The notes below the pieces were generated by a model. It was not told where the DNA came from, searched no databases, and saw nothing but the letters and a program-made list of their open reading frames with translations. Made by a program: the position numbers and the translations under genes. From an uncultured Thermoleophilia bacterium (GTDB lineage: Bacteria; Actinomycetota; Thermoleophilia; UBA2241), in assembly GCA_963717965.1 (NCBI GenBank), contig CAVQXS010000001.1:2755-66754 (forward strand): 64,000 nt of DNA, given 5' to 3'. Shown piece by piece: positions 2,526 through 61,623 of the stretch. How positions within the stretch are numbered: the stretch's first letter is position 1; each line of letters starts with the position of its first letter.

Positions 2526-2546
2526 GGACGACGCGCCGGCGCCTCG

Positions 2547-5028: not shown

Positions 5029-5192
5029 GGATGCCTCCACTGCTGTGGGTTTGCTTCAGGGGTCCAGTGTCCCCGGACGGTCCATTCCTCAAGCGCGTTG
5101 CCGCTGTGACCGAGACCCCCACCCCCGACCTCCCCAGGGGGGCCGGCGGCCCGCTCCGGCGGGCCGCCGGCCGGGACTCTTCGAGCGCGGCG

Positions 5193-5925: not shown

Positions 5926-6025
5926 CATACTCGATGACAGGTCGTGCGCCCGCTGTTGTGCTCCACGTCCGGGGCCGTCTATGGTGGGCCGAGCACGAGG
6001 CCGAGGCCGAGGAGGACGTCGCCCG

Positions 6026-7459
6026 ATGCAGACGCAGATCCAGGTCCTCTCCGAGGACGAGAAGGCGCAGGTCCACGAGCGCACGCTCACGGTGCTGAGC
6101 ACCGTCGGCATGCGCTGCGACACCGCGGAGGGGCGCCGGATCCTCGCCGCCGCCGGCGCCCTCGTCGACGAGGGCGCGCGTAGGGTCCGTTTCCCGCCGG
6201 AACTGGTCGAGAGCCTGCTGGCGCGGGCCACGCGGCGGTTCACCGTGCACGGGCGGCGCCCGGACTGGAGCTTCCCGGTGGGCGCCGGCGCCTTCACGCT
6301 CCTGGCGGACGGCGGCGCCACGGCGGTCTTCGACACGACGACCGGGGAGCGCCGCCCCACCACGGCCGGCGACTGGCGGGCGGCGACGCGGCTGCTCGAC
6401 GCGCTGGACGACGTCGGCTTCTACTGGTGCCCCACCGATTACGCCGCGGACTACGAGCAGCCCGGGGGCTTCGTGCGCTACTACGCCGATGTGTTCGGCA
6501 CCTTCGGCAAACACGTCCAGGACTCGTTCGGGACGCCCGAGCTGGCGCCGTGGCTCAAGGAGGTCCTCGATATCGTCTTCGGCGGGCCCGAGACGGTGCG
6601 CGCCCGCATGCCGCTGTCGTTCCTGATCACCCCGGCCTCACCGCTGACCATCGAGCACGACTACACGCAGACCTGGCTCGAGCTGCGCGACTACGGCCTG
6701 CCGGTGGCGGTGATGCCGATGCCGCTGCAGGGCGCGACCGCGCCCGGCAGCCGGCTCGGCACCCTGCTGGCCGCCAACTGCGAGACGATCGGCACGCTGT
6801 GCCTCGTCCAGGCGGCCGCGCCCGGCACGCCGGTGTTCTACGCACCGGTGGTGGCGACGATGGACCCGCGCACCGGGCTCTACGCCGCCGGCGCGGTGGA
6901 GCACGCTGTCCTCTCGGTGGCAGGCACGGAGATGGCCCGCTGGTACGGCCTGCCGGCCGAGTCCTCGGGCCTCTGCACGCAGACCTACGAACCGGACCTG
7001 CAGACCGCCTGGGAGAAGGCGAACGGCGGCCTGCTCACCGTCCTCGCCGACCCGGACGTGCTCGTCGGCCCCGGACTGCTCGGGGGCGCCACCATCCTCT
7101 GCCTCGAGCAGATCGTCATGGACGTCGAGGTCGTCCGGCGCGCCCGGCAGGCCAGGACCGGCGTGCCGGTGCGTGACGACCTGTGGCTCGACGAGGTCCT
7201 CGACACGGTGGGACCGTGCGGCTCGTTCCTCGGCGAGCGCTCGACCCGCAGCGGCGTGCGCAGCGGCGAGTGGCGGCTCAGCGACTACGGCGTCCAGGGC
7301 AGCTGGGACGCGTGGCGGGTGGCGGGGTCGCCGACCACCGTCGCCGCCGCCCGTGAGCGCGTCGAGAGCATCCTCGCCGGTCAGGTCTCGCTGCCATATA
7401 GCGACGACCAGGCGGCGGCCCTCGCGGCGCTGCAGCGCCGCGCCGACGCCGCCTCGTAG
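6026..7459 (+). CDS. MttB-superfamily methyltransferase without in-frame TAG (non-pyrrolysine member; substrate unknown)
   Basis: 477 aa from MQTQIQVLSEDEKAQVHERTLTVLSTVGMRC..., with GAGGAGG upstream. Collinear by eye with the TAG-containing MttB at 33775, for example LPAESSGLCTQTYEPDLQTAWEK versus LPSYIAGA-TAG-GDSKLGDAQTGHEK. Confidence 0.85.
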   Translation: MQTQIQVLSEDEKAQVHERTLTVLSTVGMRCDTAEGRRILAAAGALVDEGARRVRFPPELVESLLARATRRFTVHGRRPDWSFPVGAGAFTLLADGGATAVFDTTTGERRPTTAGDWRAATRLLDALDDVGFYWCPTDYAADYEQPGGFVRYYADVFGTFGKHVQDSFGTPELAPWLKEVLDIVFGGPETVRARMPLSFLITPASPLTIEHDYTQTWLELRDYGLPVAVMPMPLQGATAPGSRLGTLLAANCETIGTLCLVQAAAPGTPVFYAPVVATMDPRTGLYAAGAVEHAVLSVAGTEMARWYGLPAESSGLCTQTYEPDLQTAWEKANGGLLTVLADPDVLVGPGLLGGATILCLEQIVMDVEVVRRARQARTGVPVRDDLWLDEVLDTVGPCGSFLGERSTRSGVRSGEWRLSDYGVQGSWDAWRVAGSPTTVAAARERVESILAGQVSLPYSDDQAAALAALQRRADAAS

Positions 7460-16204: not shown

Positions 16205-17230
16205 GTGACTGACAAGGTCCGCGTCGGCGTGGTCGGGCTCGGCTACTGGGGCCCCAACCTCGCGCGCAATTTCGACCGCTCGCCGAACGCCGAGCTCGCC
16301 TACTGTTGCGACCTCGACGAGGCCAACCTGGCCAAGGCCCGCGGCCTCTACCCGAACACGACGGTCACCGACGACTACGCCGAGCTGCTCGGCGACGACG
16401 CGCTCGACGCGATCGTCGTCGCGACATCGGTGCCGACCCACTACGCGCTGGGCAAGAAGGCGCTGGAGGCCGGCAAGCACGCGTTCATCGAGAAGCCGAT
16501 CGCGCTCAAGGCGGCCGACGCCCAGGACCTCCTGGCGACGGCCGACGAGTACGGCGTGAAGCTGATGGTGGGTCACCTGCTCGAGTACCACCCCGCCGTC
16601 GCCAAGATGAAGGAGCTCATCGACTCCGGCGAGCTCGGCAAGGTCTTCTACGCCTATGCCAACCGGCTCAACCTCGGCAAGGTCCGCACCGACGAGAACG
16701 CTCTCTGGAGCTTCGGTCCCCACGACATCTCGGTGCTCAACTACCTCACCGGCGACGAGCCGGTGGAGGTCAGCGCCCGTGGCGAGTGCTACCTGCAGGA
16801 CGACGTCGAGGACGTGGTGTTCGGCTACATCCGCTACAAGAGCGGCGTCGTCGGCCACTTGCACGTCAGCTGGCTCGATCCCCACAAGAGCCGCAAGATC
16901 ACTGTCGTCGGCGAAAAGAAGATGGTCGTCTTTGACGACATGGAGTCCGAGCGCAAGATCACCGTCTACGACAAGGGCGCCACGACGACGCGCACCAAAT
17001 TCGAGACCTACGGCGAGTTCGTGACGCTGCACTTCGGCGACATCCACATCCCCAAGATCGGCAACGACGAGCCGCTGCGGCTCGAGACCCAGCACTTCGT
17101 GGACTGCATCCTGAACGACGAGCAGCCGCGCAGCGACGGCCGCGACGCGCTCAACGTCGTGAAGGTCCTCGACGCGATGGAGATCAGCCTGCGCGAGGGC
17201 GGCCGCCCCGTGAAGACCGCGGAGCTGTGA
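16205..17230 (+). CDS. Gfo/Idh/MocA-family oxidoreductase (WbpB-like)
   Basis: 341 aa with VRVGVVGLGYWGPNLARNF Rossmann start and EKPIALKAADAQ. Confidence 0.85.
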   Translation: MTDKVRVGVVGLGYWGPNLARNFDRSPNAELAYCCDLDEANLAKARGLYPNTTVTDDYAELLGDDALDAIVVATSVPTHYALGKKALEAGKHAFIEKPIALKAADAQDLLATADEYGVKLMVGHLLEYHPAVAKMKELIDSGELGKVFYAYANRLNLGKVRTDENALWSFGPHDISVLNYLTGDEPVEVSARGECYLQDDVEDVVFGYIRYKSGVVGHLHVSWLDPHKSRKITVVGEKKMVVFDDMESERKITVYDKGATTTRTKFETYGEFVTLHFGDIHIPKIGNDEPLRLETQHFVDCILNDEQPRSDGRDALNVVKVLDAMEISLREGGRPVKTAEL

Positions 17231-17946
17231 CGGTGGCCCTGCACGCCAGCGGCCTGGGCCACAACCTGCTCCTCGGCGACGGCGTCGTCGTCGGCGCGGA
17301 CGTCACCTTCGGCGCCAACGTCGTCGTGTACGAGGACACCGTCATCGGCGACGGCTGCTTCATCCAGGACGGCGCCGTGCTCGGCAAGGTGCCGAGCCTC
17401 TCGCCGACCAGCACCGCCAGGCGCGGCGAGCTCGCGCCGCTCACGCTCGGCGCCGGCTGCGTGATCAGCACCGGCGCCGTCGTCTATCGCGGCACCACGC
17501 TCGGACCCGGCTGCATCCTCGGCGACTACGCCGGCGTGCGCGAGCGCTGCACGCTGGGAGAGAAGGTCGTGGTGGGTCGCGGCAGCGTCGTCGAGAACGA
17601 CACGGTCATCGGCGACTTCACCAAGATCCAGACCAACGTGTACATCACCGCGTACATGACCATCGAGGACCGCTGCTTCATCGCCCCGTGCGTGCAGACG
17701 ACCAACGACAACTTCATGGGGCGCACGGAGAAGCGGCACGAGCTGATCAAGGGCGCGACCATCCGCCGCGGCGCCCGCGTCGGCGGCGGCGTCGTGCTGT
17801 GCCCGGGCATCGAGGTCGGCGCGGAGGCGTTCATCGCCGCCGGCGCCGTGGTCACCAAGGACGCGCCGGCAGGCAAGGTGCTCATGGGCGTGCCGGCGCG
17901 GGTCGTACGCGACGTCCACGAGGACGAGCTGCTCGAGAACCAGTAG
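17227..17946 (+). CDS. Left-handed beta-helix N-acetyltransferase (WbpD-like)
   Basis: 239 aa of hexapeptide repeats. Overlaps the upstream stop. Ends in TAG. Confidence 0.8.
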   Translation: MTVALHASGLGHNLLLGDGVVVGADVTFGANVVVYEDTVIGDGCFIQDGAVLGKVPSLSPTSTARRGELAPLTLGAGCVISTGAVVYRGTTLGPGCILGDYAGVRERCTLGEKVVVGRGSVVENDTVIGDFTKIQTNVYITAYMTIEDRCFIAPCVQTTNDNFMGRTEKRHELIKGATIRRGARVGGGVVLCPGIEVGAEAFIAAGAVVTKDAPAGKVLMGVPARVVRDVHEDELLENQ

Positions 17947-23814: not shown

Positions 23815-24008
23815 CGCCTCTCCGTTGGTTGCCGATGCGCGAAGTCTATACGGGAAGTATCTGCATGATTCAAGTGTACCAGCGGATTCTACTTTACGAA
23901 TGATTATGATTTCCGTTGACAGACTTACACTGTGCAAGGGAATGGCCGAGGGCGGCCTCGAGTGGGGACGCCGTGGGCACCATCAAGTCGGACAGGGGGA
24001 GCGCGAGC

Positions 24009-25612
24009 ATGACCGACGATCGTGGCATATCGAGGCGGTCCTTTGTGAAGGGGGCTGCCGCGCTCTGCGGCGCAGCCGCCTGGGCAGCCCCATCCTCTCG
24101 GCCTGTGGGGGCAGCGACTCGACGAGCTCCGCGAGCCCGTCGGCGGCCGAGTCGCCCAAGAGGGGCGGCCACATCCGCTCCGGCGTCACGGGTGGCAGCA
24201 CCAAAGACTCGCTGGACGTGGCCGTCGCCTACCTCACCGAGCCGCAGATCGCGATGTCGTGGCAGTTGTACGACGCGCTGCTGGGCTTCGACCCGGAGCA
24301 CAAGCTGATCAACCTGCTGGCCGAGTCCTGGGAGGCCAACAGCGACGCCACCCAGTACACCGTGAAGCTCAAGCAGGGCCTCGAGTTCCACAACGGCAAG
24401 ACGGTGACCGCCGACGATGTGGTCTTCACCTACGAGCGCGTCTTGAACCCCAAGACCGCCGCCGCCGGCGTCGACCAGCTACGCGATCTGAGCCCCGGCA
24501 ACGTCAAGAAGCTCGACGACCTCACGGTCCGCTTCACGCTGGACAGGCCCAACGCGGTCTTCTGGGAGGCGCTCGCCTTCTTCCCCAACGGCATCGTGCC
24601 GGTGGGCTATGACCCCAAGCCGAACGGCGAGGGCTGCATCGGCACGGGGCCGTGGATCATCACCAGCTACCGCGCGGGCGAGCAGGCGGACTTCAAGCCC
24701 AACCCCAACTACTGGGACGTCGGGCCGTACGCGGACGCGCTCACCATGGTCCAGTTCGCCGACTCCACGGCGCGTCTCAACGCGCTGCTGGGCGACACCG
24801 TCGACCACATCGACCTCGTCGAGTCCGGACAGACGAAGGTCATCACGAGCAACCCGGAGTTCACGCTGCTGCAAGCCAAGTCGGGCGGCTGGGAGCCCAT
24901 CACCATGCGCATCGACCAGAAGCCCTTCGACGACGTGCGCGTGCGCCAGGCCTTCCGGCTCATCGCCGACCGCCAGCAGATGATCGACCAGGCGCTGGCC
25001 GGGTACGGCTGGCTGGGCAACGACATGTACGGCCAGCTCGACCCCGGCTACCCGCACGACCTGCCGCAACGCACGCAGGACATCGAGCAGGCCAAGTCAC
25101 TGCTCAAGCAGGCCGGCTACGACAACAACCTCACCGTGGTGTTCAACACCTCGGACGCGGTCGGCGCGGGCCAGGTGTCCGCCGCTCAGGTGTTCTCCGA
25201 GCAGGCCAAGCTGGCCGGTGTCACCATCGAGGTCAAGAAGCTGGACGCCGCCATATTCTACGGCGACAACTACGGGCAGTGGACGCTCGCCCAGGATTAC
25301 TGGGGCACACGCAACTACCTGCCGCAGACCACGCTCATCACTCAGCCCAAGGCGCCGTACAACGAGACCCACTGGAAGGACGCCGAGTGGCAGGCCATCG
25401 TCGACGAGGCGTTCAGGACGGTGGACGAGACCAAGCGCAACGAGCTGGTGAGCGCGGCCAACAAGATCGAGTACGATCGCGGCGGCCTGCTCGTGTGGCA
25501 GAGCAACGTGCTGCTGGACGCCTACAGCAACAAGCTCGGCGGTGTCATCGCCGATACGTGGGGCCAGTCCGCCTGCAAGAACCGCTACAACCTGATGTAC
25601 TTCAAAGCGTAG
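24009..25612 (+). CDS. ABC-transporter substrate-binding lipoprotein, family 5 (peptide/nickel/opine type); one frame change near 24080
   Basis: Twin-arginine start MTDDRGISRRSFVKGAAAL is in one frame. Lipobox ILSACGG and the family-5 body (LVESWEAN-like LAESWEANSDATQYTVKLKQGLEFHNGK) are in the next frame. Confidence 0.8.
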
Positions 25613-25738: not shown

Positions 25739-27061
25739 CTACGCTGGCCAATCGCGGGCCATGGCGTCGAGGTGCGTCGCCAGCCGCGGGCCGTGCTTGG
25801 GGATGCCCAGCTTTCGCCGGATGTTGGCGCGGTGGAAGGCGACGGCAGCTCTGCTCACGTGCAGCGCCTCGGCGATCTCCGCGCTCGTTCGGCCGCGGCG
25901 CACGAGGTCGGCGACTTCCCTCTCGCGGCGGGTCAGCGCCGGGCCGCCGCCACCTTCGGCCAGCCGCTGCCCGAAGGGACCGACGATCTCGCGGAGGTTC
26001 GCGCGCAGGGCGTCGATCTCGAGCCGCTCCGGCCGGTGGCGGAAGGAGCGGCTCAGGCGCTCCAGCGTCGGCTCGATGAGCTGGTCGACGTTCGAGACGA
26101 TCCGCTGCTCCAGCTCCCGCTGATCCTGCTCGCGCTGCTCGAGCAGCACCTTGAGCGCCGCGTTGCGCTCGTCGAGGATGGTCGCCTGACGGCGCAGCGC
26201 ACGCTCTGAGCGGGCCAGCGCCTCCTGCATCGCCTTCTGCTCCGTGATGTCGGCGCCGAGCAGGAAACAGCCACGGCCGCCGGAGATGCGCGTCGGCATG
26301 ATGCTGAGCAGCAGGTACCGTGTGGCCCCCTGGACATCGCAGGAGACTTCACGCTCGCCCCATTCCGCGCCGTCCCCCCGGGCGATAGCCTGGATGACGG
26401 CCTCGGGGAAGTCGTCGGCCACGCCCTTGGCGAGCATCTCCTCTCGCGTCCGCCTGAAGAAGGCGAGCGCATGCACGTCGGCGTCGACGTAGGCGCCGTG
26501 CTCGTCCACCTGCATGGCCGGGCTGGGGAGACCGAAGAGGACGCGGCGCAGCTCGTCCGCTTCGCGGCGGACCGCCTGGGTCGCGCGCTCCCGGGTGACG
26601 TCCCGTATCGCGCCGATCATGTTCGTTGCCCGGCCGCCCCGATTCGTGAGCAGCACGCCCTGGTCGGTCACGGTGGCCCAGGAGCCGTCGCCACGGCGCA
26701 GACGGTACTCACAGGTGAACGGCAGCCCGTCCAGGATGCTGTGCGACAAGGCCTCCATCGTCGCATCGTGATCGTCCAGGTGGATGCGCTCGAGCCACCC
26801 TTCGATGCTGCGTGGGAAGCTGCCCACGGGCAGGTCGAGCATCTCGTCGATCCGGTCGGTGAAGGCAATCGCCCCGGTCTCGATGTTCCAGTCGTAGAGC
26901 ACGTCGAAGGTCACGTCGAGGAAGGCCTGCAGGCGCTTGTCGCGGGCGGTGATGGGCGGCTGCACCTGGGTACCCGCGTAACCGGGCGACGCGACCGAGA
27001 CGTCGGCGTCTCTGGCCGGCAGGACGTGGCGAAGCGGCGGAGGGATCCTGAAGCTAGGCAT
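25739..27061 (-). CDS. PAS-domain LuxR-family transcriptional regulator
   Basis: 440 aa with two PAS-like segments, a coiled region, and C-terminal LTRREREVADLVRRGRTSAEIAEALHVSRAAVAFHRANIRRKLG. Confidence 0.8.
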   Translation of the reverse strand: MPSFRIPPPLRHVLPARDADVSVASPGYAGTQVQPPITARDKRLQAFLDVTFDVLYDWNIETGAIAFTDRIDEMLDLPVGSFPRSIEGWLERIHLDDHDATMEALSHSILDGLPFTCEYRLRRGDGSWATVTDQGVLLTNRGGRATNMIGAIRDVTRERATQAVRREADELRRVLFGLPSPAMQVDEHGAYVDADVHALAFFRRTREEMLAKGVADDFPEAVIQAIARGDGAEWGEREVSCDVQGATRYLLLSIMPTRISGGRGCFLLGADITEQKAMQEALARSERALRRQATILDERNAALKVLLEQREQDQRELEQRIVSNVDQLIEPTLERLSRSFRHRPERLEIDALRANLREIVGPFGQRLAEGGGGPALTRREREVADLVRRGRTSAEIAEALHVSRAAVAFHRANIRRKLGIPKHGPRLATHLDAMARDWPA

Positions 27062-33598: not shown

Positions 33599-33774
33599 GC
33601 GGCTAGCCTGACGGCCGCCGCCCGGCGGCGCAAGCGGACGCCGGCGCATGCCAGCCGGGGCGCATGGCGGGTACGGCGCCCGGCGCCGCAGACCGCGGCC
33701 GATCGCTGGCGGCGAGCCCGCACCTTGTGATTACGTAGCTGCAGCCCATCCATCACCGGCCCGGGAGGCAGGGC

Positions 33775-35244
33775 GTGAAGCGAAACCTGTTCGCCGGCGG
33801 TCGCCGCAGCGGCGGCCTCCGGCTCGACGTGTTCACCGACGCCGAGCTCCAGGACATCCACCTCGCGACGCTGGAGATCCTGGAGCGGACCGGCGTCTGG
33901 GTGGAGATCGACGAGGCGCTCGACATCTTCGGCGACGGCGGGTGCGTCGTCGACCGGCAGACGCGCATCGTGCGCATCCCGCCGCACCTCGTGGAGGACG
34001 CGATCCGCAGCGCGCCCGCCAGCATCACCCTCTGCGGCCGCGACCCGAAGAACGACATCGTCGTCGAGGCCGGACGCGTGGGCTTCAGCAACTTCGGCGA
34101 GGGCGTGATGGTGGTCGACCCGCACAGCGGCGAGCTGCGCACGTCGACCAAGCAGGACCTCGCCGACATCGCCCGCGTCTGCGACGCGCTGCCCAACGTC
34201 GACGTCTTCGAGATCGCCGTCGGCGCCGGGGACAAGCCGCCGGCGACGGCGTCTGTCCACAACCACGAGGCGGCGATCGTCAATCAGACGAAGCCGATCT
34301 CCGGCGGTCCGCTCGACGGCCGCGCGGTCAGGATCAGCCTGCGGATGCTCGAGGCGGTGCAGGGCAGCCCGGAGGCGGTGTGCGAGCGGCCGATGATGAT
34401 CATGGGCACCTGCCCCGTGAGCCCGCTGAAGCTCGTCAAGGACTGCTGCGAGATCGTCATCGAGGCGGCGCGTGCCGGCGTGCCCAGCTGCGTGCTCAGC
34501 ATGGCGATGGCCGGCGGCTCCAGCCCGGTCACGCTGGCCGGGACGCTGGTGACGCACAACGCCGAGGTGCTGGCCGGCATCGTGCTCTCGCAGCTCACCG
34601 AGCGCGGCAGCAAGGTCCTGTACGGGAGCTCGACGACGGCGATGGACCTCAAGCTGGCGGCCGCCTCGGTCGGCTCGCCGGAGCTCGCCCTGATCAGCGC
34701 CGGCGTGGCCCAGCTCGCCCGGCAGTACCGCCTGCCCAGCTACATCGCCGGTGCGTAGGGCGACAGCAAGCTCGGTGACGCCCAGACCGGTCACGAGAAG
34801 ACCCTCACGGCTCTCGTAGCGGCGTTGGCAGGGACCAACCTGATCTACGGCCTGGGGATGATCGAGTCGGGCGTCACCTTCGACTACGCGCAGCTCGTCA
34901 TGGACGACGAGCTCGCGAGCATGGTGAAGCACGTGGTCGGGGGAATCCGCGTCGACGACGAGGCGCTGGCGGTGGACGACATCGCCGCGGTGGGGTCGTT
35001 CGGCGACTTCCTGAGCCTCGACGCGACGATGAGGCACATGCGCGAGGCCTCGCAGCCGGAGCTGCTCGACCGCCGCGTGCGCGAGGACTGGGAGGCGCGC
35101 GGGAGCAGCGACCTCCACCAGCGGTCGCTGGAGAAGGCGCGCCACATCCTGGAGACCCATCACCCGGAGCCGCTGCCCGGCGACGTGCTGCGGCGCATCC
35201 GCGCGATCGTCGACGACGCCGACCGCGAGCTGGCCGGGGGCTGA
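33775..35244 (+). CDS. mttB: Trimethylamine methyltransferase MttB homologue with in-frame TAG (candidate pyrrolysine codon) at 34756..34758
   Basis: ORF 33775..34758 (327 codons, then TAG) and ORF 34825..35244 share a frame. Sequence stays protein-like across the gap: [46 protein letters not shown]. Joined length is 489 aa. GGGAGG lies before the GTG. Final stop is TGA. Confidence 0.85.
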
Positions 35245-35291: not shown

Positions 35292-35993
35292 TCAGCCGCC
35301 CGGCGGCGTGCTCAGCATGCCGATCACGGGGACCGGGCCGAGCGCGTCGCTCCAGCCGGTCGTGAGCATGACCTTGAGCGCGTAGCTCTGGCCGACGACG
35401 GTGTAGCTGAACGCGCCGAGGGTGGTGTCCGCGACCATGTCGGCGCCGGTCCACGGGTTCTTCGGCCAGACGTAGCTCGTCCCGAACATCGCCCCGGTCA
35501 CGTCGTCAGGCGCCGGGTACGCCCCGCCGTGCGTCGCGGCGTACGCCTCGACGTAGCGCTGCAGGAGGAGCAGGTTCTGCCTTGCCGCGGTGTTGCGCTC
35601 GCTCTTGAACCACGCCGGCATTCCACCGCTGAGCCGCCAGTCACCGCTGGACAGGTGGACGACGAGCTTGTAGCTGAGGCCGCTGGCGCTCGGCGTGTAC
35701 GTGTAGGTGCCCTTCGAGGTGCCCGGCCCCATGACCCTTCCGGTCCACGGGTTGGACGGCCAGATGATGGTCGAGGTCGGCAGACCGCCGCCCTTCTTCA
35801 CCATCGACTTCGGCGGATACACGAAGTGGTGGGCGACGCCGTAGTCGTTGACGTACTTCTGGATGAGGAGCGAGCCGGCCTGCACCTGCTTGTCGACGAA
35901 GCTGACGGCGTGCGCCTGTCGCGGGGTCGCCGCCGAGAGGGTGAGGGCAAGGGCCGCGGCCGCCAGGGCGACGACGATCCTGTGTCTGGTCAC
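35292..35993 (-). CDS. Secreted protein with two pilin-like WPxNPWTG modules
   Basis: GTG preceded by AGGAGG. Signal peptide ...LSAATPRQAHA. Modules are WPSNPWTGRVMGPGTSKGTYTYTPSASGLSYKLVVHLSSG and WPKNPWTGADMVADTTLGAFSYTVVGQSYALKVMLTTG. Confidence 0.65.
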   Translation of the reverse strand: MTRHRIVVALAAAALALTLSAATPRQAHAVSFVDKQVQAGSLLIQKYVNDYGVAHHFVYPPKSMVKKGGGLPTSTIIWPSNPWTGRVMGPGTSKGTYTYTPSASGLSYKLVVHLSSGDWRLSGGMPAWFKSERNTAARQNLLLLQRYVEAYAATHGGAYPAPDDVTGAMFGTSYVWPKNPWTGADMVADTTLGAFSYTVVGQSYALKVMLTTGWSDALGPVPVIGMLSTPPGG

Positions 35994-36013
35994 GAGGGTG
36001 CCTCCTGTGGTCG

Positions 36014-37042
36014 TCAGAGCTTCGCGGGGCCGGAGTCGCGCGCCGGCCCCGCAGGCGACGGCGCGGTGCCGCCGGCCTCGAAGTCGCCGGAGTGGAGGTG
36101 GATGGTGAGGACGTACGCCCCCGCCTCGGCGGGCGCGTACGTGTAAGAGCCCGGTCCGGGGCCCGGCAGCATCGCGGCGCCGCTGGTCGGGTCCTGCGGC
36201 CAGTCGGGGTGCGCCGCCCCCACGGCGGCGCCCGGCGCGAGATCCATGACCTGCGGCAGCGCGCCGCCGTGCTGCAGCGACCACTGGCCGACGTAGCCGG
36301 CGAGGATGCGCCCGTTCCGCCGCAGGATCTCATCTTCGAGGCTGGCGAGCAGGTGCTGCCACGGGCTGGTGACGGTCGTGCCGGTGAGCACGTAGTCGTT
36401 CTTGAGGGCGCGGTGCAGTCGCAGCGTGTACGACGCCCGGTCCGCCGCGACCTGGTAGGCGAACGACCCCTTGTCACGGCGCTGCGCCATCATCAGGTGG
36501 TCCCACGGGTTGCTGGGCCAGTAGTGGTGCCTGGGCTCGTTGCGGACGGCGCCGACGGCGCTCACATCGGCGGGCAGCGGGAAGCGGCCGTTGTGAGCGG
36601 CGGCGTAGTCCTCGACGTACTGGCGGATGAGGTTGATACCCTCTTCGCTGCGATGGTCGTAGGCGAGCATGATGGAGCGCGGCATGCCGCCGCTGACGGT
36701 GATGCTGCCGCCGGCGAGATAGCCGACCAGGCGGTAGCGCCGGCGGTCGGTCGTGACCGTGTAGGTGTAGTGGCCGCGCGTCGAGCCGGGGTGCAGGGCA
36801 CCGCCCGTCCAGGGGTTGACCGGCCACCACGTCCCGCCGAGATGGCCGGGGCGGACTGCCGTAGGCCGCGGGTACTCGAAGTAGCGCGCGGCCCCCTCGC
36901 GGTCGATGAGGCCGCGCAGGGCCATGACCGCCTGACGCATCTCGTCGTTGGCCGAGGCGGCGCGGGCCGGCGCGGAAGCGCCCGCGCCGAGGCAGACCGC
37001 CGCGAGCAGCACGGCGCCGAGCACGAGTATGCGTCGGATCAT
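36014..37042 (-). CDS. Secreted protein with three pilin-like modules
   Basis: Signal peptide MIRRILVLGAVLLAAVCLGAGASAPARA. Modules are WPVNPWTGGALHPGSTRGHYTYTV...YRLVGYLAGG, WPSNPWDHLMMAQRRDKGSFAYQV...YTLRLH, and WPQDPTSGAAMLPGPGPGSYTYAP...YVLTIHLHSG. Confidence 0.65.
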   Translation of the reverse strand: MIRRILVLGAVLLAAVCLGAGASAPARAASANDEMRQAVMALRGLIDREGAARYFEYPRPTAVRPGHLGGTWWPVNPWTGGALHPGSTRGHYTYTVTTDRRRYRLVGYLAGGSITVSGGMPRSIMLAYDHRSEEGINLIRQYVEDYAAAHNGRFPLPADVSAVGAVRNEPRHHYWPSNPWDHLMMAQRRDKGSFAYQVAADRASYTLRLHRALKNDYVLTGTTVTSPWQHLLASLEDEILRRNGRILAGYVGQWSLQHGGALPQVMDLAPGAAVGAAHPDWPQDPTSGAAMLPGPGPGSYTYAPAEAGAYVLTIHLHSGDFEAGGTAPSPAGPARDSGPAKL

Positions 37043-37192: not shown

Positions 37193-38587
37193 GTGATGCC
37201 GGTGGAGGCGAAGATCCCCACGCGCATGGGCGATGGGTTCATGGTCGAGATGACGCGCAGCGAGCTGCGTGCCGACCTCGAGGACGCGACGCGGGCGGCG
37301 GCACGCAAGGCCAAGGCGCCGCCGCTCACTCCCGATGAGCTCGACCACCTGCTCGATATCTACGCCTCGCGCGCCGCCTTCACCGCCGTCGACATCGGCG
37401 ACCAGGTGGTCCTCAGCTGCGACGGCGGCGGCAGCAAGATGACCGGCACCGACCTGCTCGACCTGCTCGAGAGCGAGCAGCGCCTGGGCCAGGACATCCT
37501 CGAGCTCTGGCACATCGAGTACAGCTACAAGGCGATCAAGACGATCCTGCCGTTCCAGCAGCAGGTGATGCAGAACTGCCAGCTGATGATGACGGCGCCG
37601 GTGCAGTACGGCGCCCAGCCCAACCTGGCCTTCTACAGCAAGCCGGACGGGCCGGCGGACAACTGGTTCGAGCTGCTGCCGCGCGGCGAGATCGCCGGCG
37701 CCCGCGCGGCCATCGACGAGGCCATGGACCACGCCACCAAGGACTTCATCTACGTGGGCGAGGGCATGCTGGAGGCCGGCGCCGACGGCATGGACTTCGA
37801 CACCACCGGCGGCGCCGGCGACGCCGACTTCTTCAGCACGCTGCGCGCGGTGAAGCACCTGCGCGCGAAGTACCCGGACGCCGGCATCGAGGTCGGCATG
37901 GCCGGCGAGTTCGTGATCGGCGTGCACGGCGAGCTCGAGTGGGACGGCCGCCGGCTCGCCGGGCTGTGGCCGAAGGAGCAGCTCGAGGTGTGCCAGGACG
38001 CCGGCGCCACCATCTTCGGGCCGGCGGTCAACATCCGCACGGGCAAGAGCTGCGCCTGGAACACCGCCTACTCGATCACGGTGATGAAGCCGTGCATGGA
38101 CGTGGCCCGCATCCCCGTGCATCCCAACGTCGGCGAGGGCGTGGGCGGCGTGCCGGTGAACGGCTACCCGCCCGAGGACGCGGCGTCCCGGGCGGCCAAG
38201 GCGCACGTAGACCTGCTGCGCTGCGACGGGTTGTAGGTGGGCTCGGGTGACTCCAGAGGCATGGATGTCACCCACGCGCTCGCCGCGGGCATGGGCGGGA
38301 TGCGCACGGCCGGAGACCTGGTCGCGCGCATGCAAATGGCCCGCGGGATGCGCCTTCCGGAGGCGAAGAGCTACGTCGCGGACCGCCTCGGCTGCACCGT
38401 CCGCGACCTCAGCGACAGCTACGCGATGGAGCAGATCCGCGGCGAGAAAGGCCTGGGGCGGATCCTCGACCACTCCAACCTGCACCCGGGCGAGCCGAAC
38501 GCGATGATGGCCAAGTTCCGCATCGCCGAGCTGCTCGGCGTGCCGATCAGCTCGGTGGAGCGCTTTCGGGAGCTGGCGGGGCTGTAG
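37193..38587 (+). CDS. mtbB: Dimethylamine methyltransferase MtbB homologue with in-frame TAG (candidate pyrrolysine codon) at 38234..38236
   Basis: ORF 37193..38236 is followed without a gap by same-frame ORF 38237..38587. Blocks RMGDG, FDTTGGAGDADFF, AGLWP, LRCDGL-TAG-VGSGDS and RTAGDLVARMQ match my recollection of methanogen MtbB. Joined length is 464 aa. The terminal stop is also TAG. Confidence 0.9.
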
Positions 38588-39071: not shown

Positions 39072-39196
39072 CTGCGAAGTGACGTGAACACGGGAAGCAG
39101 CCGCGGCCGCGGGGAGGCCGACCGAGGACCGCTTCAGCCGGCGGCGAACGCTGCCGATGGATGGACACACGTCGAGCCACCGCCGGAGGCAGGCAC

Positions 39197-39580
39197 ATGA
39201 AACGGATCGCGGGCATCGCCCTCATCGTCGTCGTGGCGCTCGCCGTCACCGGGGCGTTCGCCGGCTGCGGCTGCCAGGAGCAGGCGGTGGAGAACACCAC
39301 CGGGACGATCGACGTGGCCAAGGACGCGGCGGCCAAGGCCCAGCTGGTGCCGATCAAGACCGCCGTGCAGTCCTACGTCATCTCCAACGGCGCGCTGCCG
39401 CCCGACGCTTCGCAGGCGACCCTCGGGGGCTTCGTCCAGCCGTGGCCGACGAACCCCTTCACCAACGCACCGATGAAGCAGGGCGACGGCGTGGGCGACT
39501 ACGTCTACACGCCCGGGGCCGGGACCGACTTCACGCTTGCGGTCCACCTCTCCGACGGGAGCACCGCCACAGCGCCGTGA
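39197..39580 (+). CDS. Lipoprotein with one pilin-like module
   Basis: MKRIAGIALIVVVALAVTGAFAGCGC lipobox, then IKTAVQSYVISNGALPPD...WPTNPFTNAPMKQGDGVGDYVYTPGAGTDFTLAVHLSDG. Confidence 0.65.
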   Translation: MKRIAGIALIVVVALAVTGAFAGCGCQEQAVENTTGTIDVAKDAAAKAQLVPIKTAVQSYVISNGALPPDASQATLGGFVQPWPTNPFTNAPMKQGDGVGDYVYTPGAGTDFTLAVHLSDGSTATAP

Positions 39581-41813: not shown

Positions 41814-42749
41814 CTAGGGGACGAGCACCAGCTTGCCGAGGGCCGGCCGGCTCATGATGAGCTCGTGCGCGCGTGCCGCCTCCGCGAGCGGCAGCTCGCG
41901 GCCGACCACGGGCTTCAGCACGCCGCTCTGCAGGCCGGCGTCCACCGCTGCGCGCGCCGCCGCGATCTCCCTGGGCCGCGCGTTCGGCGTGCGCATGCCG
42001 AGCACGGCGCCCTCGGCGTTCATGAGGTCGCGGGCGTCGATCTCCACCGTGCCCCGGCTGCCGACGACGACGACGCGGCCACGCTTGGCCAGGGCCTTCA
42101 GGTCGTTCCCGAGGTTGACGTTCGCCAGGAACTCGATGATGAGGTCGAAGCCGCGACCGCCGGCGAGCTCGAGCGCCGCCTCGAGGTGGCGGGGGTCGCG
42201 GTGGTCGAGCACCCGCACGGCGCCCTGCGAGGCGACGAGATCGCTCCCGGCCTCGCTCCCGGCCGTGCCGGTCACATCGAGGCCGGCAGCGACGGCGAGC
42301 TGCACGGTGGCGATCCCGACGCCACCGCTGGCGCCGTGGATCAGGACGCGCTCCCCGGCCACGGCGGCGGCGCGCTGGAACAGCGCCCGGTACGCGGTCA
42401 GGTAGGGAACGCCGACGGCGGCGCCCTGGGCGTAGGAGAGGCCATCCGGCAGGGGCCGCACGTGGTCCTCGAGGCAGAGCGCGTACTCGGCGTAGGTGCC
42501 GCTGAGGGAGTCGGTGACGTAGACGCGCTCGCCGCTGTCGACGCGCACGCCGGCCGCGTCCACGCCGGGAGTGTACGGCAGGGCGGGGAGGTCGGTGTAG
42601 AGGCCCGCCCGCACGTAGGTCTCGTACGGATTCACGCCGGCGGCCTGCACCCGGACGAGGACTTCGCCCTCGACGGGTCCCGGCTGCGGCAGCTCCTCGA
42701 CGACGAGGACCTCGGGGTCGCCGAACTGGTGGACGCGGACGGCGCGCAT
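41814..42749 (-). CDS. NADPH:quinone oxidoreductase (zeta-crystallin-like MDR)
   Basis: 311 aa with MRAVRVHQFGDPEVLVVEE and LIHGASGGVGIATVQLA. Ends in TAG. Confidence 0.9.
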   Translation of the reverse strand: MRAVRVHQFGDPEVLVVEELPQPGPVEGEVLVRVQAAGVNPYETYVRAGLYTDLPALPYTPGVDAAGVRVDSGERVYVTDSLSGTYAEYALCLEDHVRPLPDGLSYAQGAAVGVPYLTAYRALFQRAAAVAGERVLIHGASGGVGIATVQLAVAAGLDVTGTAGSEAGSDLVASQGAVRVLDHRDPRHLEAALELAGGRGFDLIIEFLANVNLGNDLKALAKRGRVVVVGSRGTVEIDARDLMNAEGAVLGMRTPNARPREIAAARAAVDAGLQSGVLKPVVGRELPLAEAARAHELIMSRPALGKLVLVP

Positions 42750-42763
42750 GGCTCACCCCTCCA

Positions 42764-43804
42764 TCATGGGACGGAGTAGGTGAGGCCGTTGCTCAGGTAG
42801 CCGGTCAGCTTGTAGCTCTGGCCGCCGGCCAGCTGCTCGTAGACGTAGCTGCCCGGGGCCGTGCCCGGCGTCATCGGCTGCCCGGTGAACGGGTTGGTCG
42901 GCCATGGGTCCACGTATTGCGAGATCCCGCCGCCCTCGACGACGTCCTGCGGCGGCGGGTAGAGGTTGTTGTTGGCGCTCGCCCACGTGACGATGCCCAC
43001 CTGCAGCTTGGCGATGCCGTCGATCGCCTGCTGGTCGGCGCTCGGCGATCCCGACGCGCTCGGGCTCGGGCTGGGCGTCGGCGACGTCGTCGCGGACGGC
43101 GACGGGCTGGGCGTCGGCGACGGGGTCGGCGTCGGACTCGCGGGCAGGAGGACGTCGACGCGCACGAAGGTGACGGGGTCGAGCTGCAGGTCGCCCGACG
43201 TGAACTGGAGCCTCAGGCTGTCGTTCGCGCTCTCGTGCGTCAGCGTCCCCTTCACCGTGCCGGTCACGCCGGTCATGCCCAGCGCCGAGGCCTGCACGCT
43301 CAGCTGGAGCGCGCCGTCGACGAGGTCGGCGGTGGTGGAGCCGGCCCGCTGGAGCTGGCCGTCGTACTGAGTGATCTTGAACTGGTCGCCCTCGGCCTGG
43401 GCGATGACGAGCCCGCCGCCGGTGCCGGCCTCCGGCGCCCAGGTGCCGATGAACTCCTCGCCGGCGGTGGACGAATCGGTGGGCCGCAAGTAGAAGAACC
43501 AGAGTGCGGCCACCGCGGCGACGATCGCGAGCACGAGGAGGAGCCAGACCCACCACGGCACGCCGCCGCCGGAGCTCCGGGAGTGCGTCAGAAGGATGGT
43601 CGGCTGTGAAGGCGGCGGGGGCGGCGGAGACGCGGCGCCCGCCGCCGGCATCACCCGCGTCGCCGACGTGTCCTGGCCGCCCATGACCTGCGTCGCGCCT
43701 TCGTCGGCGGGCGGCATCACCCGCGTCACGTCGTCCGCGTCGGGGGGCGTCGCCCTGGTCAGCTCGGTATCGTCGGGCGCCCTGCCCGTGGTCTCGTCGT
43801 CCAT
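42764..43804 (-). CDS. Membrane-anchored protein: cytoplasmic tail, TM, beta-rich module, Pro/Thr/Ser linker, C-terminal pilin-like module
   Basis: TM WWVWLLLVLAIVAAVAALWFFYL. Then GEEFIGTWAPEAG..., linker PTPTPSPTPSPSPSATTSPTPSPSPS, and WPTNPFTGQPMTPGTAPGSYVYEQLAGGQSYKLTGYLSNG. Confidence 0.65.
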   Translation of the reverse strand: MDDETTGRAPDDTELTRATPPDADDVTRVMPPADEGATQVMGGQDTSATRVMPAAGAASPPPPPPSQPTILLTHSRSSGGGVPWWVWLLLVLAIVAAVAALWFFYLRPTDSSTAGEEFIGTWAPEAGTGGGLVIAQAEGDQFKITQYDGQLQRAGSTTADLVDGALQLSVQASALGMTGVTGTVKGTLTHESANDSLRLQFTSGDLQLDPVTFVRVDVLLPASPTPTPSPTPSPSPSATTSPTPSPSPSASGSPSADQQAIDGIAKLQVGIVTWASANNNLYPPPQDVVEGGGISQYVDPWPTNPFTGQPMTPGTAPGSYVYEQLAGGQSYKLTGYLSNGLTYSVP

Positions 43805-45284: not shown

Positions 45285-45749
45285 TTGACGCGCAGGGGGT
45301 TCCTGAAGTGGCTCATCGCCGGCTTCGGCGTGGTCTCGCTCGCCGGCGTGCTCTATCCCATCGCGCGGTTCCTCAAGCCTCCCGCGGCCGTATCGGGAGC
45401 CATCGGCCAGGTCGCCAGCGTCGGCACCCTCGACACGTTTCCCGCCGGGCAACTGACGGCGGTCGTCGTCGGCGGACAGCCGGCCGCAGTCCAGAACATG
45501 AACGGGAAGTACACCGTGTACTCGCTCATCTGCACGCATCTGGGCTGCGTCCTCGCCATCACCGGCGACACCCTTCACTGTCCCTGCCACGGCAGTGAAT
45601 TCTCCGCCACGGGCACCGTCACCCACGGGCCCGCGACCCTGCCGCTGCCCACGTATCACTCGCAGACGCAGAACGACTCACTCCTCGTGGGCCCGATCGA
45701 TCTGAGCCGTGCCGCGTATCCGGCCTGGTATACGGGGGAGTTCGGATGA
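45285..45749 (+). CDS. Rieske 2Fe-2S subunit of the cytochrome bc/b6f-type complex
   Basis: Twin-arginine-like MTRRGFLKWLIAG, then CTHLGC and CPCHGS. Confidence 0.85.
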   Translation: MTRRGFLKWLIAGFGVVSLAGVLYPIARFLKPPAAVSGAIGQVASVGTLDTFPAGQLTAVVVGGQPAAVQNMNGKYTVYSLICTHLGCVLAITGDTLHCPCHGSEFSATGTVTHGPATLPLPTYHSQTQNDSLLVGPIDLSRAAYPAWYTGEFG

Positions 45750-46450
45750 GCACGACCGAGGGCACCGGCCCGGGGGCGCCCGGCGCTCCCATGCCGGCCG
45801 AGAAGGGCGTCGTCCCGTGGGTGGTCCGCCGCCTCGGGCTCACGGCCACGATGGAGGACCAGTACAACCGCATCGTGCCGATGCACGCGACGAACTACAT
45901 CTACTGCTTCGGCGGCATCGCCTTCGTCCTCTTCATCATCCTGGCGGTGACCGGCATCCTGCTGGCGGTGTACTACGAACCGACGCCGGACACCGCGTAC
46001 CAGAGCGTCCTCAACATCTCCACGCACGTGCAGTTCGGCTGGTGGATCCGCTCGATCCACCGCTGGGCGGCCGGCGGCATGGTCCTGCTCGTCTTCGTGC
46101 ACCTGCTGCGCGTGTTCTTCACCGGCGCGTACAAGGCGCCACGCGAGCTCAACTGGCTCACCGGCGTGGCGCTCCTCCTCATCACCCTGGGCTTCGGCTT
46201 CACCGGCTATCTGCTGCCGTGGGACCAGAAGGCGTACTGGGCGACCAAGGTGGGCACCGACATCGCCGGCTCGGTGCCCGTGATCGGCCACTTCCTGCTC
46301 GTGAGCCTGCGTGGCGGCGAGCAGATCAGCGCCGCCACCCTCGGCCGCTTCTACGACCTCCACGTGCTGGTGCTGCCGGCCGTCATCGTCGTCCTGCTCC
46401 TCGGGCACTTCTGGATGATCCGCCGCCACGGCATCTCCGGGCGGCTGTAG
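45746..46450 (+). CDS. Cytochrome b6-type subunit (N-terminal half of cytochrome b)
   Basis: 234 aa with FGGIAFVLFIILAVTG, IRSIHRWAAGGMVLLVFVHLLRVFFTGAYK, TGYLLPWDQ. Ends in TAG. Confidence 0.9.
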   Translation: MSTTEGTGPGAPGAPMPAEKGVVPWVVRRLGLTATMEDQYNRIVPMHATNYIYCFGGIAFVLFIILAVTGILLAVYYEPTPDTAYQSVLNISTHVQFGWWIRSIHRWAAGGMVLLVFVHLLRVFFTGAYKAPRELNWLTGVALLLITLGFGFTGYLLPWDQKAYWATKVGTDIAGSVPVIGHFLLVSLRGGEQISAATLGRFYDLHVLVLPAVIVVLLLGHFWMIRRHGISGRL

Positions 46451-46460
46451 GAGGGGCGTG

Positions 46461-46910
46461 ATGACGAAGAAGACACGCAGGGCGTACCCGACCAACGAAC
46501 CGCCGCGGTTCTACTGGGAGATGTGGCGCGACCCGGGGCAGGGCTACATCCCGTACTTCTGGGAGGAGCTCACGTCCCAGGCGATGATGTTCTTCCTCTT
46601 CCTCGGTGTGATCGGGGGCGTCGCGCTGCTCTGGCCGGCCGACCTGGCGCCGCAGGCGAACGTGCTGGTGACGCCGTCCGGCATCAAGCCCGAGTGGTAC
46701 TTCCTCGGGCTGTTCCAGCTGATCAAGGTGATCCCGGAGATCGCCGGGATCGTGCTCGTGGCGGTCGTCGTCCTGCTGATGGTGATCCTGCCGTTCGTGG
46801 ACCGGAGTCCCGAGCGCAATCCGCTGCGCAAGCCCGTGACGACGACGGTCGCCGTCATCGTCATCGTCGCTCTCATCGTCCTCACGATCTGGGGAGCGGT
46901 GACGCCGTGA
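46461..46910 (+). CDS. Subunit-IV-like protein (C-terminal half of cytochrome b)
   Basis: IKPEWYFLGLFQLIK motif with 3 TM helices. AGGAGG lies upstream. Confidence 0.85.
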   Translation: MTKKTRRAYPTNEPPRFYWEMWRDPGQGYIPYFWEELTSQAMMFFLFLGVIGGVALLWPADLAPQANVLVTPSGIKPEWYFLGLFQLIKVIPEIAGIVLVAVVVLLMVILPFVDRSPERNPLRKPVTTTVAVIVIVALIVLTIWGAVTP

Positions 46911-49790: not shown

Positions 49791-51093
49791 TCAGAACTCG
49801 AGCTTCTCCAGCCGCCCGAAGATCACGTCGCGGCCGGCGCGGTACTGATCCGGGTCCATGGCGGCGTCGATCTCCTTCGCCGTCATCACCTGCATCGCCT
49901 CGTCGTTCTGCTTGATGAGCAGCCCGAAGTCGACGCCTTCACGCCAGGCGTGCATCGCCGCGTCCTGCACGACGCGGTAGGCGTCCTCGCGCAGCATGCC
50001 CTTGTCGACGAGGGCCAGCAGGACCGCCCCGCTGAAGACGAGGCGGTAGCTCTGGCCCAGGTTCGCCAGCATGCGTTCCTCGTCGACGACGAGTGTGTCG
50101 ACGAGCCTGGTGAACTTCTGCAGCATGTAGTCGAGGAGGATCGTGCTGTCCGGCAGCACGATGCGCTCGGCGGAGCTGTGGCTGATGTCGCGCTCGTGCC
50201 AGAGGGCGACGTTCTCCATGCCCACGAGCGCGTTGCCGCGCAGCACGCGCGCGCAGCCGGCCATGCGCTCGCTGAGGATCGGGTTGCGCTTGTGGGGCAT
50301 CGCCGACGACCCCTTCTGGCCCTTGCCGAACGCCTCCTCGGCCTCACGCACCTCGGTGCGCTGCAGGTGCCGCACCTCGGTCGCGAACTTCTCGATGCTC
50401 GAGCCGATGATGGCGATGCAGGCGAGGAAGGCGGCGTGACGGTCGCGCTGCACGACCTGGTTGCTGATCGGCTCGCGGCCGATGCCGAGCTCTTCGCAGA
50501 CGAGGTCCTCGACCCGCGGGTCGATGTTGTTGTAGGCGCCGACGGCGCCGCTGATCTTGCCGACCGAGGCGTTCACCGTGACGACGCGCATGCGTTTGAG
50601 GTGACGGCTGACCTCGAACGCCCAGATGCCGAGCTTCATGCCGAAGGTGATGGGCTCGGCGTGGATGCCGTGCGTGCGCCCCACCTCGACAGCGTCCCGG
50701 AACTCGAAGGCGCGCCGCTTGAGCACCTCGCCCAGCGCGACGAGGTCGCGCTCGAGGAGCAGCCCGGCGCGCTGGATCTGCAAGCGCCAGCGCCGTGTCG
50801 AGCATGTCGCTGCTCGTCATCCCGTAGTGCACGTACTTGCTGGCGTCGCCGACGTACTCGGCGACGTTGGTGAGGAAGGCGATGACGTCGTGGTTGGTCG
50901 TCGCCTCGATCTCGTTGACGCGGGCGACGTCGAAGGCGGCCTTGGCCTCGATCTCGGCGACCGCGTCGTGCGGCACCTTGCCGAGCTTCTCCCAGGCCTT
51001 CACGGCGGCGATCTCGACGTCGAGCCAGGCCTGCATCCTGGCCTCGTCGGTCCAGATCGCGCCCATCTCAGGGAGCGTGTAGCGCTCGATCAT
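49791..51093 (-). CDS. purB: Adenylosuccinate lyase; one frame change near 50782
   Basis: MIERYTLPEMGAIWTDEARMQAWLDVE...GMTSSDMLDTALAL is in one frame. QIQRAGLLLERDL...GSSAMPHKRNP... is in the next. The junction lies at a 2-nt homopolymer. Confidence 0.9.

Positions 51094-59058: not shown

Positions 59059-61623
<2,565 letters not shown>

Follow-up and report, generated by a model that had tools for sequence, protein, structure and literature searches.

The 64,000 nucleotides of DNA analysed here (the window) come from an uncultured Thermoleophilia bacterium of the Actinomycetota (assembly GCA_963717965.1, contig CAVQXS010000001.1, positions 2,755-66,754) and include a gene, mttB, that is broken by an in-frame TAG at its codon 328. 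Comparison of its sequence with those of relatives makes it very probable that the gene encodes a full-length trimethylamine:corrinoid methyltransferase of 489 residues in which UAG 328 is read as pyrrolysine (Pyl), and that this enzyme is paired with MtbB, a dimethylamine methyltransferase encoded nearby. The positions on which the argument turns are as follows.

33763 to 33768, plus strand: Shine-Dalgarno-like GGGAGG, read from the sequence, 6 nt ahead of the GTG start.
33775 to 35244, plus strand: mttB, putative Pyl-type trimethylamine:corrinoid methyltransferase, 489 codons including the UAG, matched by Pfam MTTB, TIGR02369 and PDB 7xcl.
34756 to 34758, plus strand: in-frame TAG, codon 328, the predicted pyrrolysine codon, aligned with X334 of 7xcl in a conserved column.
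34846 to 34848, plus strand: TAC codon of Tyr358, which by alignment corresponds to Methanosarcina barkeri Tyr364, the proposed proton shuttle activating Pyl (role from PMC9842639).

The reading frame opens at GTG 33775, runs for 327 codons to the TAG and then for 161 more to a TGA at 35242-35244, so that the description given in the original prediction, which was made from the sequence alone (a 327-codon open reading frame (ORF) that continues for 161 codons past TAG 34756..34758 to a TGA, 489 residues in all with the TAG as codon 328), is borne out. The start codon fits the N terminus of M. barkeri MttB, with residue 2 of the query paired with chain residue 3. When the two halves are scored separately against Pfam MTTB (PF06253) they give 190.7 bits (profile positions 30-336) and 107.6 bits (positions 341-497), and these ranges abut; the joined gene gives a single match that spans the TAG at 314 bits, against a cut-off of 25. 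Third codon positions have a GC content (GC3) of 0.97 upstream of the TAG and 0.95 downstream, where the window as a whole has about 70% GC, and on this basis both halves appear to be coding and under purifying selection. Among pairs of abutting, coding-like ORFs that share a frame in the window, a TAG forms the boundary only in mttB and mtbB, the other four pairs being neighbouring genes split by TGA.

The closest relative of solved structure is M. barkeri MttB (PDB 7xcl/7xcm; phmmer, E ~6e-125, query residues 2-488), with 46.5% identity to 7xcl over 488 aligned residues. In the phmmer alignment the TAG is paired with the X at residue 334 of 7xcl, which is K in the 7xcm mutant, and the 161 downstream codons align with the C terminus of MttB up to chain residue 494. 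The original prediction had given Pyl 334 for a methanogen enzyme of about 490 residues; M. barkeri MttB indeed has Pyl334 and a length of about 495 (PMC9842639). Against NCBIfam TIGR02369, the MttB equivalog, the window gene scores 697 bits where the cut-off is 525, and this result, together with the Pfam and structural matches, upholds the assignment to MttB.

Structural work on the M. barkeri enzyme provides a description of the active site against which the window protein can be compared (PMC9842639). In that enzyme Tyr364 and the carbonyl of Gly110, which forms a cis-peptide with Thr111, hold a water that is bonded to the imine of Pyl, Met249 shifts to accommodate the substrate, Gly372 and Thr111 touch the corrinoid, and the Y364F substitution lowers Vmax from 48 to 1.7 turnovers per minute. 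Gly108, Met243, Tyr358 and Gly366 of the window protein correspond to Gly110, Met249, Tyr364 and Gly372, so that these four residues of the Pyl pocket are conserved. Across the wider family, the activating Tyr is kept in 69/69 genes with TAG at the Pyl column (TAG-type genes), and of nine relatives with Leu or Val there eight have Phe or Ala in its place. That the Pyl column and the activating Tyr co-vary in this way is good, if indirect, evidence for genuine use of Pyl by the TAG-type proteins.

A useful contrast is available within the window itself, where a second member of the superfamily is encoded without interruption.

5981 to 7459, plus strand: MttB-superfamily paralogue of 492 residues, non-Pyl (Pfam MTTB, 213.6 bits).

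This paralogue reaches only 283 bits against TIGR02369, under the cut-off of 525, and at the columns of Pyl and Tyr364 it carries Cys and Val respectively, as fits the non-Pyl MttB superfamily. Proteins of the MtgB type are marked by a sense codon at the Pyl column and by loss of the activating Tyr; the window mttB has neither feature, retaining TAG and Tyr358. The paralogue gene terminates in TAG, and a LuxR-type regulator gene is found just upstream (5031-5780).

The position of the TAG is also stringently conserved. A scan of GTDB species representatives yielded 78 loci, all from uncultured Thermoleophilia, Actinomycetes or Actinomycetota metagenome-assembled genomes (MAGs) of soil, bog, palsa, permafrost and lake sediment, to which three ENA loci were added. 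In these loci TAG occupies the Pyl column in 86/86 homologues of 58-91% identity, mostly followed by about 161 in-frame codons, and it does so in 14 further metagenome genes. In close full-length relatives of 50-61% identity the column is occupied by Leu, Trp or Val, and in paralogues of less than 40% identity by sense codons. The protein database presents the clade as dozens of clusters of proteins of exactly 327 residues, the product of gene-caller truncation. Each of these genomes carries several Pyl-type mttB and mtbB paralogues. Three loci (L086, with genes at 715-2192 and 2209-3693; L088; L090) show a TAG-type mttB followed 17 nt later by a Leu-type paralogue without Pyl, most of these paralogues having also lost the activating Tyr. 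A further gene (L103), with CAG (Gln) at the Pyl column, may represent a recent replacement of Pyl by Gln.

Machinery for the insertion of pyrrolysine is present in the lineage. A direct search with PylSc, the C-terminal part of pyrrolysyl-tRNA synthetase (PylRS), returned only Methanosarcina or Firmicutes proteins among its best 120 matches. The lineage's own enzyme was reached by running a PylSc profile against a library clustered at 50%, choosing representatives of high-GC composition and using one of them (P0245) as the query for homologues. This search revealed a large high-GC family of PylSc proteins, including those named by NCBI as 'pyrrolysine--tRNA(Pyl) ligase large subunit' in a Thermoleophilia MAG and an Actinobacteria MAG. 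The score against NCBIfam PylS_Cterm is 307 bits, with a cut-off of 178, and an adjoining PylSn gene scores 117 bits against PylS_Nterm, with a cut-off of 51. A tRNA-Pyl with anticodon CUA was detected by ARAGORN 1.4 kb from pylSc. Its architecture is typical of such tRNAs: a single base separates the acceptor stem from the D stem, the D-loop has 5 nt, the anticodon stem is long, the variable loop is very short, and the T-psi-C consensus is lacking.

Two contexts tie these genes to TAG-containing methyltransferases: MAG JBAZPK01 holds both pylSc (L085) and a TAG-type mttB (L029), linked by their shared whole-genome shotgun prefix, and on a 1.14-Mb contig pylSc adjoins a TAG-containing mtbB. 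In four loci (L082-L085, around position 10001) pylSc shares 4 nt with the end of a gene for a peptidoglycan amidase (PG_binding_1 + Amidase_3). Its surroundings are conserved, with GluRS and TldD/PmbA genes, and are not those of the classical pylTSBCD-mtxBC cluster; pylSn, pylT and a fragment of pylC follow pylSc in L083 only. That locus changes abruptly from 70% to 30% GC at about 13500 and stays so to its end, with a reverse-transcriptase gene at the junction, and it represents either a chimeric assembly or a foreign insertion.

The second TAG-containing gene of the window lies about 2 kb downstream of mttB.

37193 to 38587, plus strand: mtbB, Pyl-type dimethylamine methyltransferase (Pfam Dimeth_Pyl, TIGR02368, Rfam PYLIS_2 starting at the TAG).

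The original prediction had counted this neighbour as a second, independent case of an in-frame TAG at the expected position, and it is a real one: Pfam Dimeth_Pyl matches at 510 bits across the TAG (38234-38236), the score on NCBIfam TIGR02368 is 389.1 bits, above the cut-off of 369.1, and TAG is found at the Pyl column in 99/99 homologues among the fetched loci. MtbB is likely to catalyze the following step of the pathway. The course of the reaction may be outlined by analogy with M. barkeri MttB. A split PylRS (PylSc + PylSn), whose genes would lie elsewhere in the genome, would charge the tRNA-Pyl(CUA) that decodes UAG 328, and the Pyl328 imine would be activated via a water held by Tyr358 and the backbone carbonyl of Gly108. 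The activated Pyl328 would then add trimethylamine, the methyl group passing to Co(I) of a corrinoid protein, and the dimethylamine released would become the substrate of the neighbouring Pyl-type MtbB. Together the two enzymes would demethylate trimethylamine to dimethylamine and on to monomethylamine, delivering methyl groups into one-carbon metabolism.

The corrinoid partner in this scheme is probably an MttC-like protein encoded beside a paralogous mttB of the same genomes. In the paralogous clade typified by FVAGL-O-[AT]DSK, a gene for such a protein (B12-binding_2 + B12-binding) directly follows mttB and overlaps its stop codon, an adjacency that is usual and not strictly defining. It never follows mttB in the subclade to which the window gene belongs (YIAGA-O-GDSK; L001-L018), and tblastn with Thermoleophilia MttC gave no match in the window or in those loci. 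Both kinds of mttB are found in the same genomes, as in CAVXXF01, where L010 and L011 represent one kind while L021 and L066 represent the other, and for this reason an orphan mttB copy could borrow its corrinoid partner.

Several observations weigh against reading the TAG as pyrrolysine and the gene as a trimethylamine methyltransferase. The TIGR02369 model fails to separate Pyl from non-Pyl proteins within the clade, as a Leu-type relative (P0007) scores 687 bits, and residue 109 is Glu where M. barkeri has Thr111, a position that makes its contacts via the backbone. No pyl gene or tRNA-Pyl was found in the window by ARAGORN or by tblastn with PylSc, PylSn, the PylC fragment and tRNA-Pyl, nor, in the same searches, within 10 kb of any mttB locus. 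PylC is represented only by a fragment (173 bits against a cut-off of 248) that is cut at the 70% to 30% GC contig junction, and pylB and pylD were not located in any of the Thermoleophilia sequences searched. No corrinoid protein, MT2 or RamA was found in the window.

A further confounding issue is that UAG also serves as an ordinary stop codon in this DNA, where TAG ends about 12 of some 57 called genes (about a fifth), among them genes for a cytochrome b6, a quinone oxidoreductase and a solute-binding protein. This count refers to the window only, since lineage-wide counts are confounded by the enrichment of the loci in Pyl genes.

45746 to 46450, 41814 to 42749, 23825 to 25612, 25739 to 27061 and 17227 to 17946, in the window: examples of genes whose stop codon is TAG.

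Close backup stops are lacking, frames staying open for 30 to more than 300 codons past the terminal TAGs; mtbB itself terminates in TAG (38585-38587), with the next in-frame stop 38 codons on. As indiscriminate read-through would be costly, placing long extensions on proteins such as cytochrome b6, decoding of UAG would therefore have to be selective, inefficient or conditional.

Of the explanations that compete with pyrrolysine, the one that survives best, though it is quite unlikely, holds that UAG is read through by near-cognate insertion of Gln, Tyr or Trp and that the substrate is a quaternary amine or some other compound, not trimethylamine. Relatives of 50-61% identity do work with Leu, Trp or Val at the column while still passing TIGR02369, one gene has the Gln codon CAG there, and pylB and pylD have not been found. 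The lineage nonetheless possesses PylSc, PylSn and a tRNA-Pyl(CUA) for which no other use is known, the Pyl-activating Tyr is strictly kept in the TAG types and mostly lost in the Leu/Val types, and TAG has persisted over deep divergence even though a single base change would give a sense codon.

Less probable again is that two polypeptides, a 327-residue N-terminal part and an internally started C-terminal part of about 140-155 residues, form a split enzyme. Gene callers do give two ORFs in every relative, and the C-terminal ORF has candidate TTG or ATG starts. The break, however, falls exactly at the catalytic Pyl position, so that a split enzyme would be without its key residue; the internal starts predicted differ among relatives, giving fragments of 143 versus 154 residues; no start codon or ribosome-binding site is conserved from the TAG to those starts; and residues right after the TAG are highly conserved yet would stay untranslated. 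The chance that the TAG is a sequencing or assembly error, or a nonsense mutation in a pseudogene, is close to negligible, because the codon is kept at the same column in all 86 homologues, which come from many independent MAGs and sample types, and in the 14 metagenome genes, because the 161 codons after it show a GC3 of 0.95 and full MttB similarity, and because mtbB shows the same pattern; the errors suspected in the assembly, where purA and purB look split, and in long-read MAG loci, where several MttC matches are divided between frames, appear to be indels and not substitutions. Thus the interpretation as a Pyl-type MttB, first put forward from the sequence alone, is supported, with the Pyl column, the downstream C terminus and the pocket residues all in its favour.

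How a cell might distinguish the UAG codons to be read as Pyl from those that end genes is a question on which the RNA downstream of the two TAGs has some bearing. Two hairpins are predicted there.

34820 to 34842, plus strand: predicted mttB RNA hairpin, CGG-[C]-GUUGG / CAGGGA / CCAAC-CUG, 8 bp with a 1-base bulge (RNAalifold, covariation).
38302 to 38329, plus strand: predicted mtbB RNA hairpin, +69 to +96 from the UAG (RNAalifold; PYLIS_2 model positions 73-92).

The mttB element lies at +65 to +87, counted from the U of UAG. Over the 120 nt after the TAG, 70 sequences (the window and 69 loci) share 91% nucleotide identity, and within the gene identity is highest at codons 351-370 (0.934, compared with a gene mean of 0.82). 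The only fixed rare codons of the entire gene are TTG351 and GCA352, each used for about 6% of its codon family, and both are inside the hairpin. An entropy of synonymous sites in sliding windows of ten codons does not single out this region, so that the signal is confined to the fixed rare codons and the identity peak. Pair 66-86 of the hairpin occurs as A-U (44 sequences), U-A (16 sequences) and G-U (10 sequences), and in the U-A state a rare CCT (Pro) codon is joined with CAG (Gln).

Covariation was assessed with 42 distinct segments, including the 14 metagenome genes (from contigs of 49-70% GC), and 500 shuffles. In this set 93.5% of cells are paired, where any slid register gives at most 50%; three of the eight pairs show compensatory change, a number matched by 3 of 500 shuffles, and the covariation score of 0.139, against 0.067 in shuffles, is matched by none of the 500. 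In one variant AAC CTG is changed to AAC GTC, and there the base that is otherwise bulged is paired and the stem is a perfect one of 9 bp. The hairpin reaches -5 kcal/mol or lower in 66 of 73 distinct TAG-type sequences and in none of five Leu-type sister genes, some of which lie directly downstream of a TAG-type gene. Those sister genes encode the same or nearly the same peptide at this point (A-L/M-A-G-A-N), yet their synonymous sites vary freely and the hairpin is impossible. It is missing from two TAG-type genes (L096, L098) and present in the CAG-type L103. Another candidate, a GUGAC/GUCAC hairpin at +20 to +39, appears conserved within Thermoleophilia and was rejected because it fails in more diverse TAG-type genes.

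The hairpin of mtbB differs in its history, since it corresponds to the 3' hairpin of Rfam PYLIS_2 and was therefore predicted earlier from archaeal and Firmicute genes. RNAalifold recovers it here from 95 distinct sequences, with 11 pairs of which several flip between C-G and G-C, and its loop contains an invariant rare GGA codon; the loops of the two hairpins are AGGN-type in mttB and AGAY in mtbB. PYLIS_2 (RF02509) matches at 59.3 bits, starting at the mtbB UAG, and PYLIS_3 (RF02510) matches the mttB RNA at 63.7 bits against a threshold of 38 (34756-34855, starting at the UAG). The PYLIS_3 model has only about 8 pairs, several of them non-canonical in the window match, so that a structure supported by sequence is not found, and its source paper reports no common mttB structure; on these grounds the match restates coding homology. 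The +65 to +87 hairpin is not part of that model, whose consensus sequence is unable to form it. For the RNA downstream of the TAG, whose folding the original prediction proposed, a conserved hairpin is thus predicted at 34820-34842, and the PYLIS_3 match reflects coding conservation and not a validated structure.

The mttB hairpin is probably real, and a role for it in the decoding of UAG is possible, if doubtful. Such a role is suggested by the presence, in two unrelated Pyl genes, of a hairpin at the same distance from the UAG; it is limited by a distance too great for direct contact with the decoding ribosome, by the invariance of most stem positions and by the relatedness of the sequences. 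Judged on sequence patterns, the idea that Pyl-type mttB has here evolved its own cis-acting hairpin, which would license or promote UAG-to-Pyl decoding specifically in these mRNAs, must be treated as tentative. There is about an even chance that the conservation of 34820-34842 reflects a constraint of another kind, such as a promoter-like TTGGCA, a protein or small-RNA site, mRNA stability or simply shared ancestry. In line with this view, the stem is mostly invariant and its covariation is carried by few lineages, the structure was derived from the same related sequences in which it was evaluated, TTGGCA is one mismatch from the sigma-70 -35 hexamer, the hairpin at +65 is beyond the reach of a ribosome decoding the UAG, and two TAG-type genes do without it. 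These points must be set against the compensatory change in three of eight pairs and the register-shifted variant with its perfect stem, the free variation at these synonymous sites in Leu-type sisters with the same A-L-A-G-A-N peptide, and the covarying hairpin that unrelated mtbB genes keep at the same distance. An internal promoter in particular was judged unlikely, as no conserved -10 element follows TTGGCA and codon 359 is free to vary at its third position (H 1.77). If the decoding role proposed for the hairpin were true, it would amount to a position-specific signal for recoding to pyrrolysine, of the kind that has been both sought and doubted ever since PYLIS was proposed.

The remaining neighbours of mttB include genes for a PAS-LuxR regulator, an amino-acid permease, a molybdopterin oxidoreductase, a pyridoxal-phosphate-dependent decarboxylase and a flavin-dependent (FAD) oxidoreductase, an arrangement that is partly syntenic in one relative (L001), as well as secreted repeat proteins without family match. 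The latter, secreted or membrane-anchored and without a Pfam match, share the motif W-P-x-N-P-(W/F)-T-G and are scattered around the methyltransferase genes.

35292 to 35996, minus strand: W-P-x-N-P-(W/F)-T-G repeat protein, by motif.
36014 to 37042, minus strand: repeat protein with the same motif.
39161 to 39580, plus strand: repeat protein with the same motif.
42764 to 43804, minus strand: repeat protein with the same motif.

About 10 kb from the Pyl genes (45285-46910, plus strand) are genes for a Rieske protein and for a split cytochrome b6 and subunit IV, as in a b6c-type complex, and because of these the organism is probably respiratory, unusual company for pyrrolysine. Elsewhere in the lineage, a TAG-type mttB with mttC (L081, 1311-2699, minus strand) lies in a paralogue-rich cluster with four to five non-Pyl MttB-family genes, a lysine 2,3-aminomutase-like gene, a hemerythrin-domain gene and an ATP-binding cassette (ABC) transporter, which suggests a broad catabolic island for methylated amines. 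In the window, purA (59059-60550, minus strand) seems split into two overlapping frames of 354 and 146 residues, and the purB ORF (49791-50783, minus strand) does not cover roughly the first 130 profile positions of Lyase_1; in loci from long-read MAGs, several MttC genes are likewise split between frames. The pattern suggests indel errors of assembly rather than real pseudogenes.

Accounts of pyrrolysine usually present it as a rarity, found in methanogens and in a few anaerobic bacteria. The window adds evidence that widespread uncultured Actinomycetota of soil, peat and sediment use it routinely, and such genomes could represent significant sinks for trimethylamine and dimethylamine, amines that otherwise feed methylotrophic methanogens. 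As standard gene callers split genes of this kind, surveys relying on their calls miss or misread them. The TAG-type hairpin further provides a concrete, mutable target for asking whether a signal in the mRNA helps UAG to be read as Pyl and not as a stop, a question that has been open since the discovery of pyrrolysine.

Comparison with known systems shows which of these features are shared and which set the window gene apart. With M. barkeri MttB (7XCL/7XCM/7XCN; Li et al. 2023, PMC9842639) it has in common fold, family, UAG column, pocket residues and a similar length. It differs in that the host is a 70% GC bacterium and no methanogen, in the Glu that replaces Thr111, in the lack of an adjacent mttC, mttP or pyl cluster, and presumably in the downstream methyl acceptor, which would be tetrahydrofolate and not coenzyme M. 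The non-Pyl enzymes of the MttB superfamily (MtgB, MtpB, MtcB, MtyB; PDB 2QNE, 9YCE) belong to the same TIM-barrel superfamily, the window mttB matching 2qne with an E of 8e-67, but those of the MtgB type combine a sense codon at the Pyl column with quaternary-amine substrates, where the window gene has TAG and the activating Tyr; the Leu/Trp/Val-type relatives are much closer to the window mttB than MtgB is. Among the PYLIS elements (Rfam RF01982 for mtmB, RF02509 for mtbB, RF02510 for mttB), the window matches PYLIS_3 and PYLIS_2, with the mttB hairpin outside PYLIS_3.

The Pyl systems of Firmicutes and Deltaproteobacteria (Desulfitobacterium hafniense, Acetohalobium arabaticum, Bilophila) resemble that of the Thermoleophilia in their split PylSc and PylSn genes and in the use of UAG as an ordinary stop elsewhere in the genome. 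In those bacteria pylTSBCD usually forms one cluster with mtxBC genes (PMC5424206), whereas the Thermoleophilia pylSc overlaps an amidase gene in a housekeeping neighbourhood, apart from most mttB and mtbB genes. For the Actinobacteria, PylRS has been counted in 'two Actinobacteria' (Guo et al. 2022, PMC9630628); a literature search combining Thermoleophilia and pyrrolysine returned nothing relevant.

The nearest precedent is that of Ellenbogen et al. 2023, where, according to the relevant passages, Actinobacteriota MAGs of the genus Bog-752 from Stordalen Mire encode and express Pyl-type mttB and mtbB, spotted by their amber truncation (PMC10805028). Lineage and trait are the same there as in the window, and two of the loci analysed here (L044, L050) come from MAG bog_752 and have TAG at the same column. 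The bog_752 copies are 64% identical to the window mttB, which falls in the subclade that lacks an adjacent mttC. The passages in question separate Pyl from non-Pyl genes by truncation and carry no mention of pyl machinery, paralogue subclades or downstream RNA elements. The Pyl-type mttB trait is thus already reported for soil and peat Actinobacteria, to which the window gene adds a member, while the orphan subclade without adjacent mttC, the dispersed pyl genes and the mttB hairpin specific to TAG-type genes appear to be newly described here.

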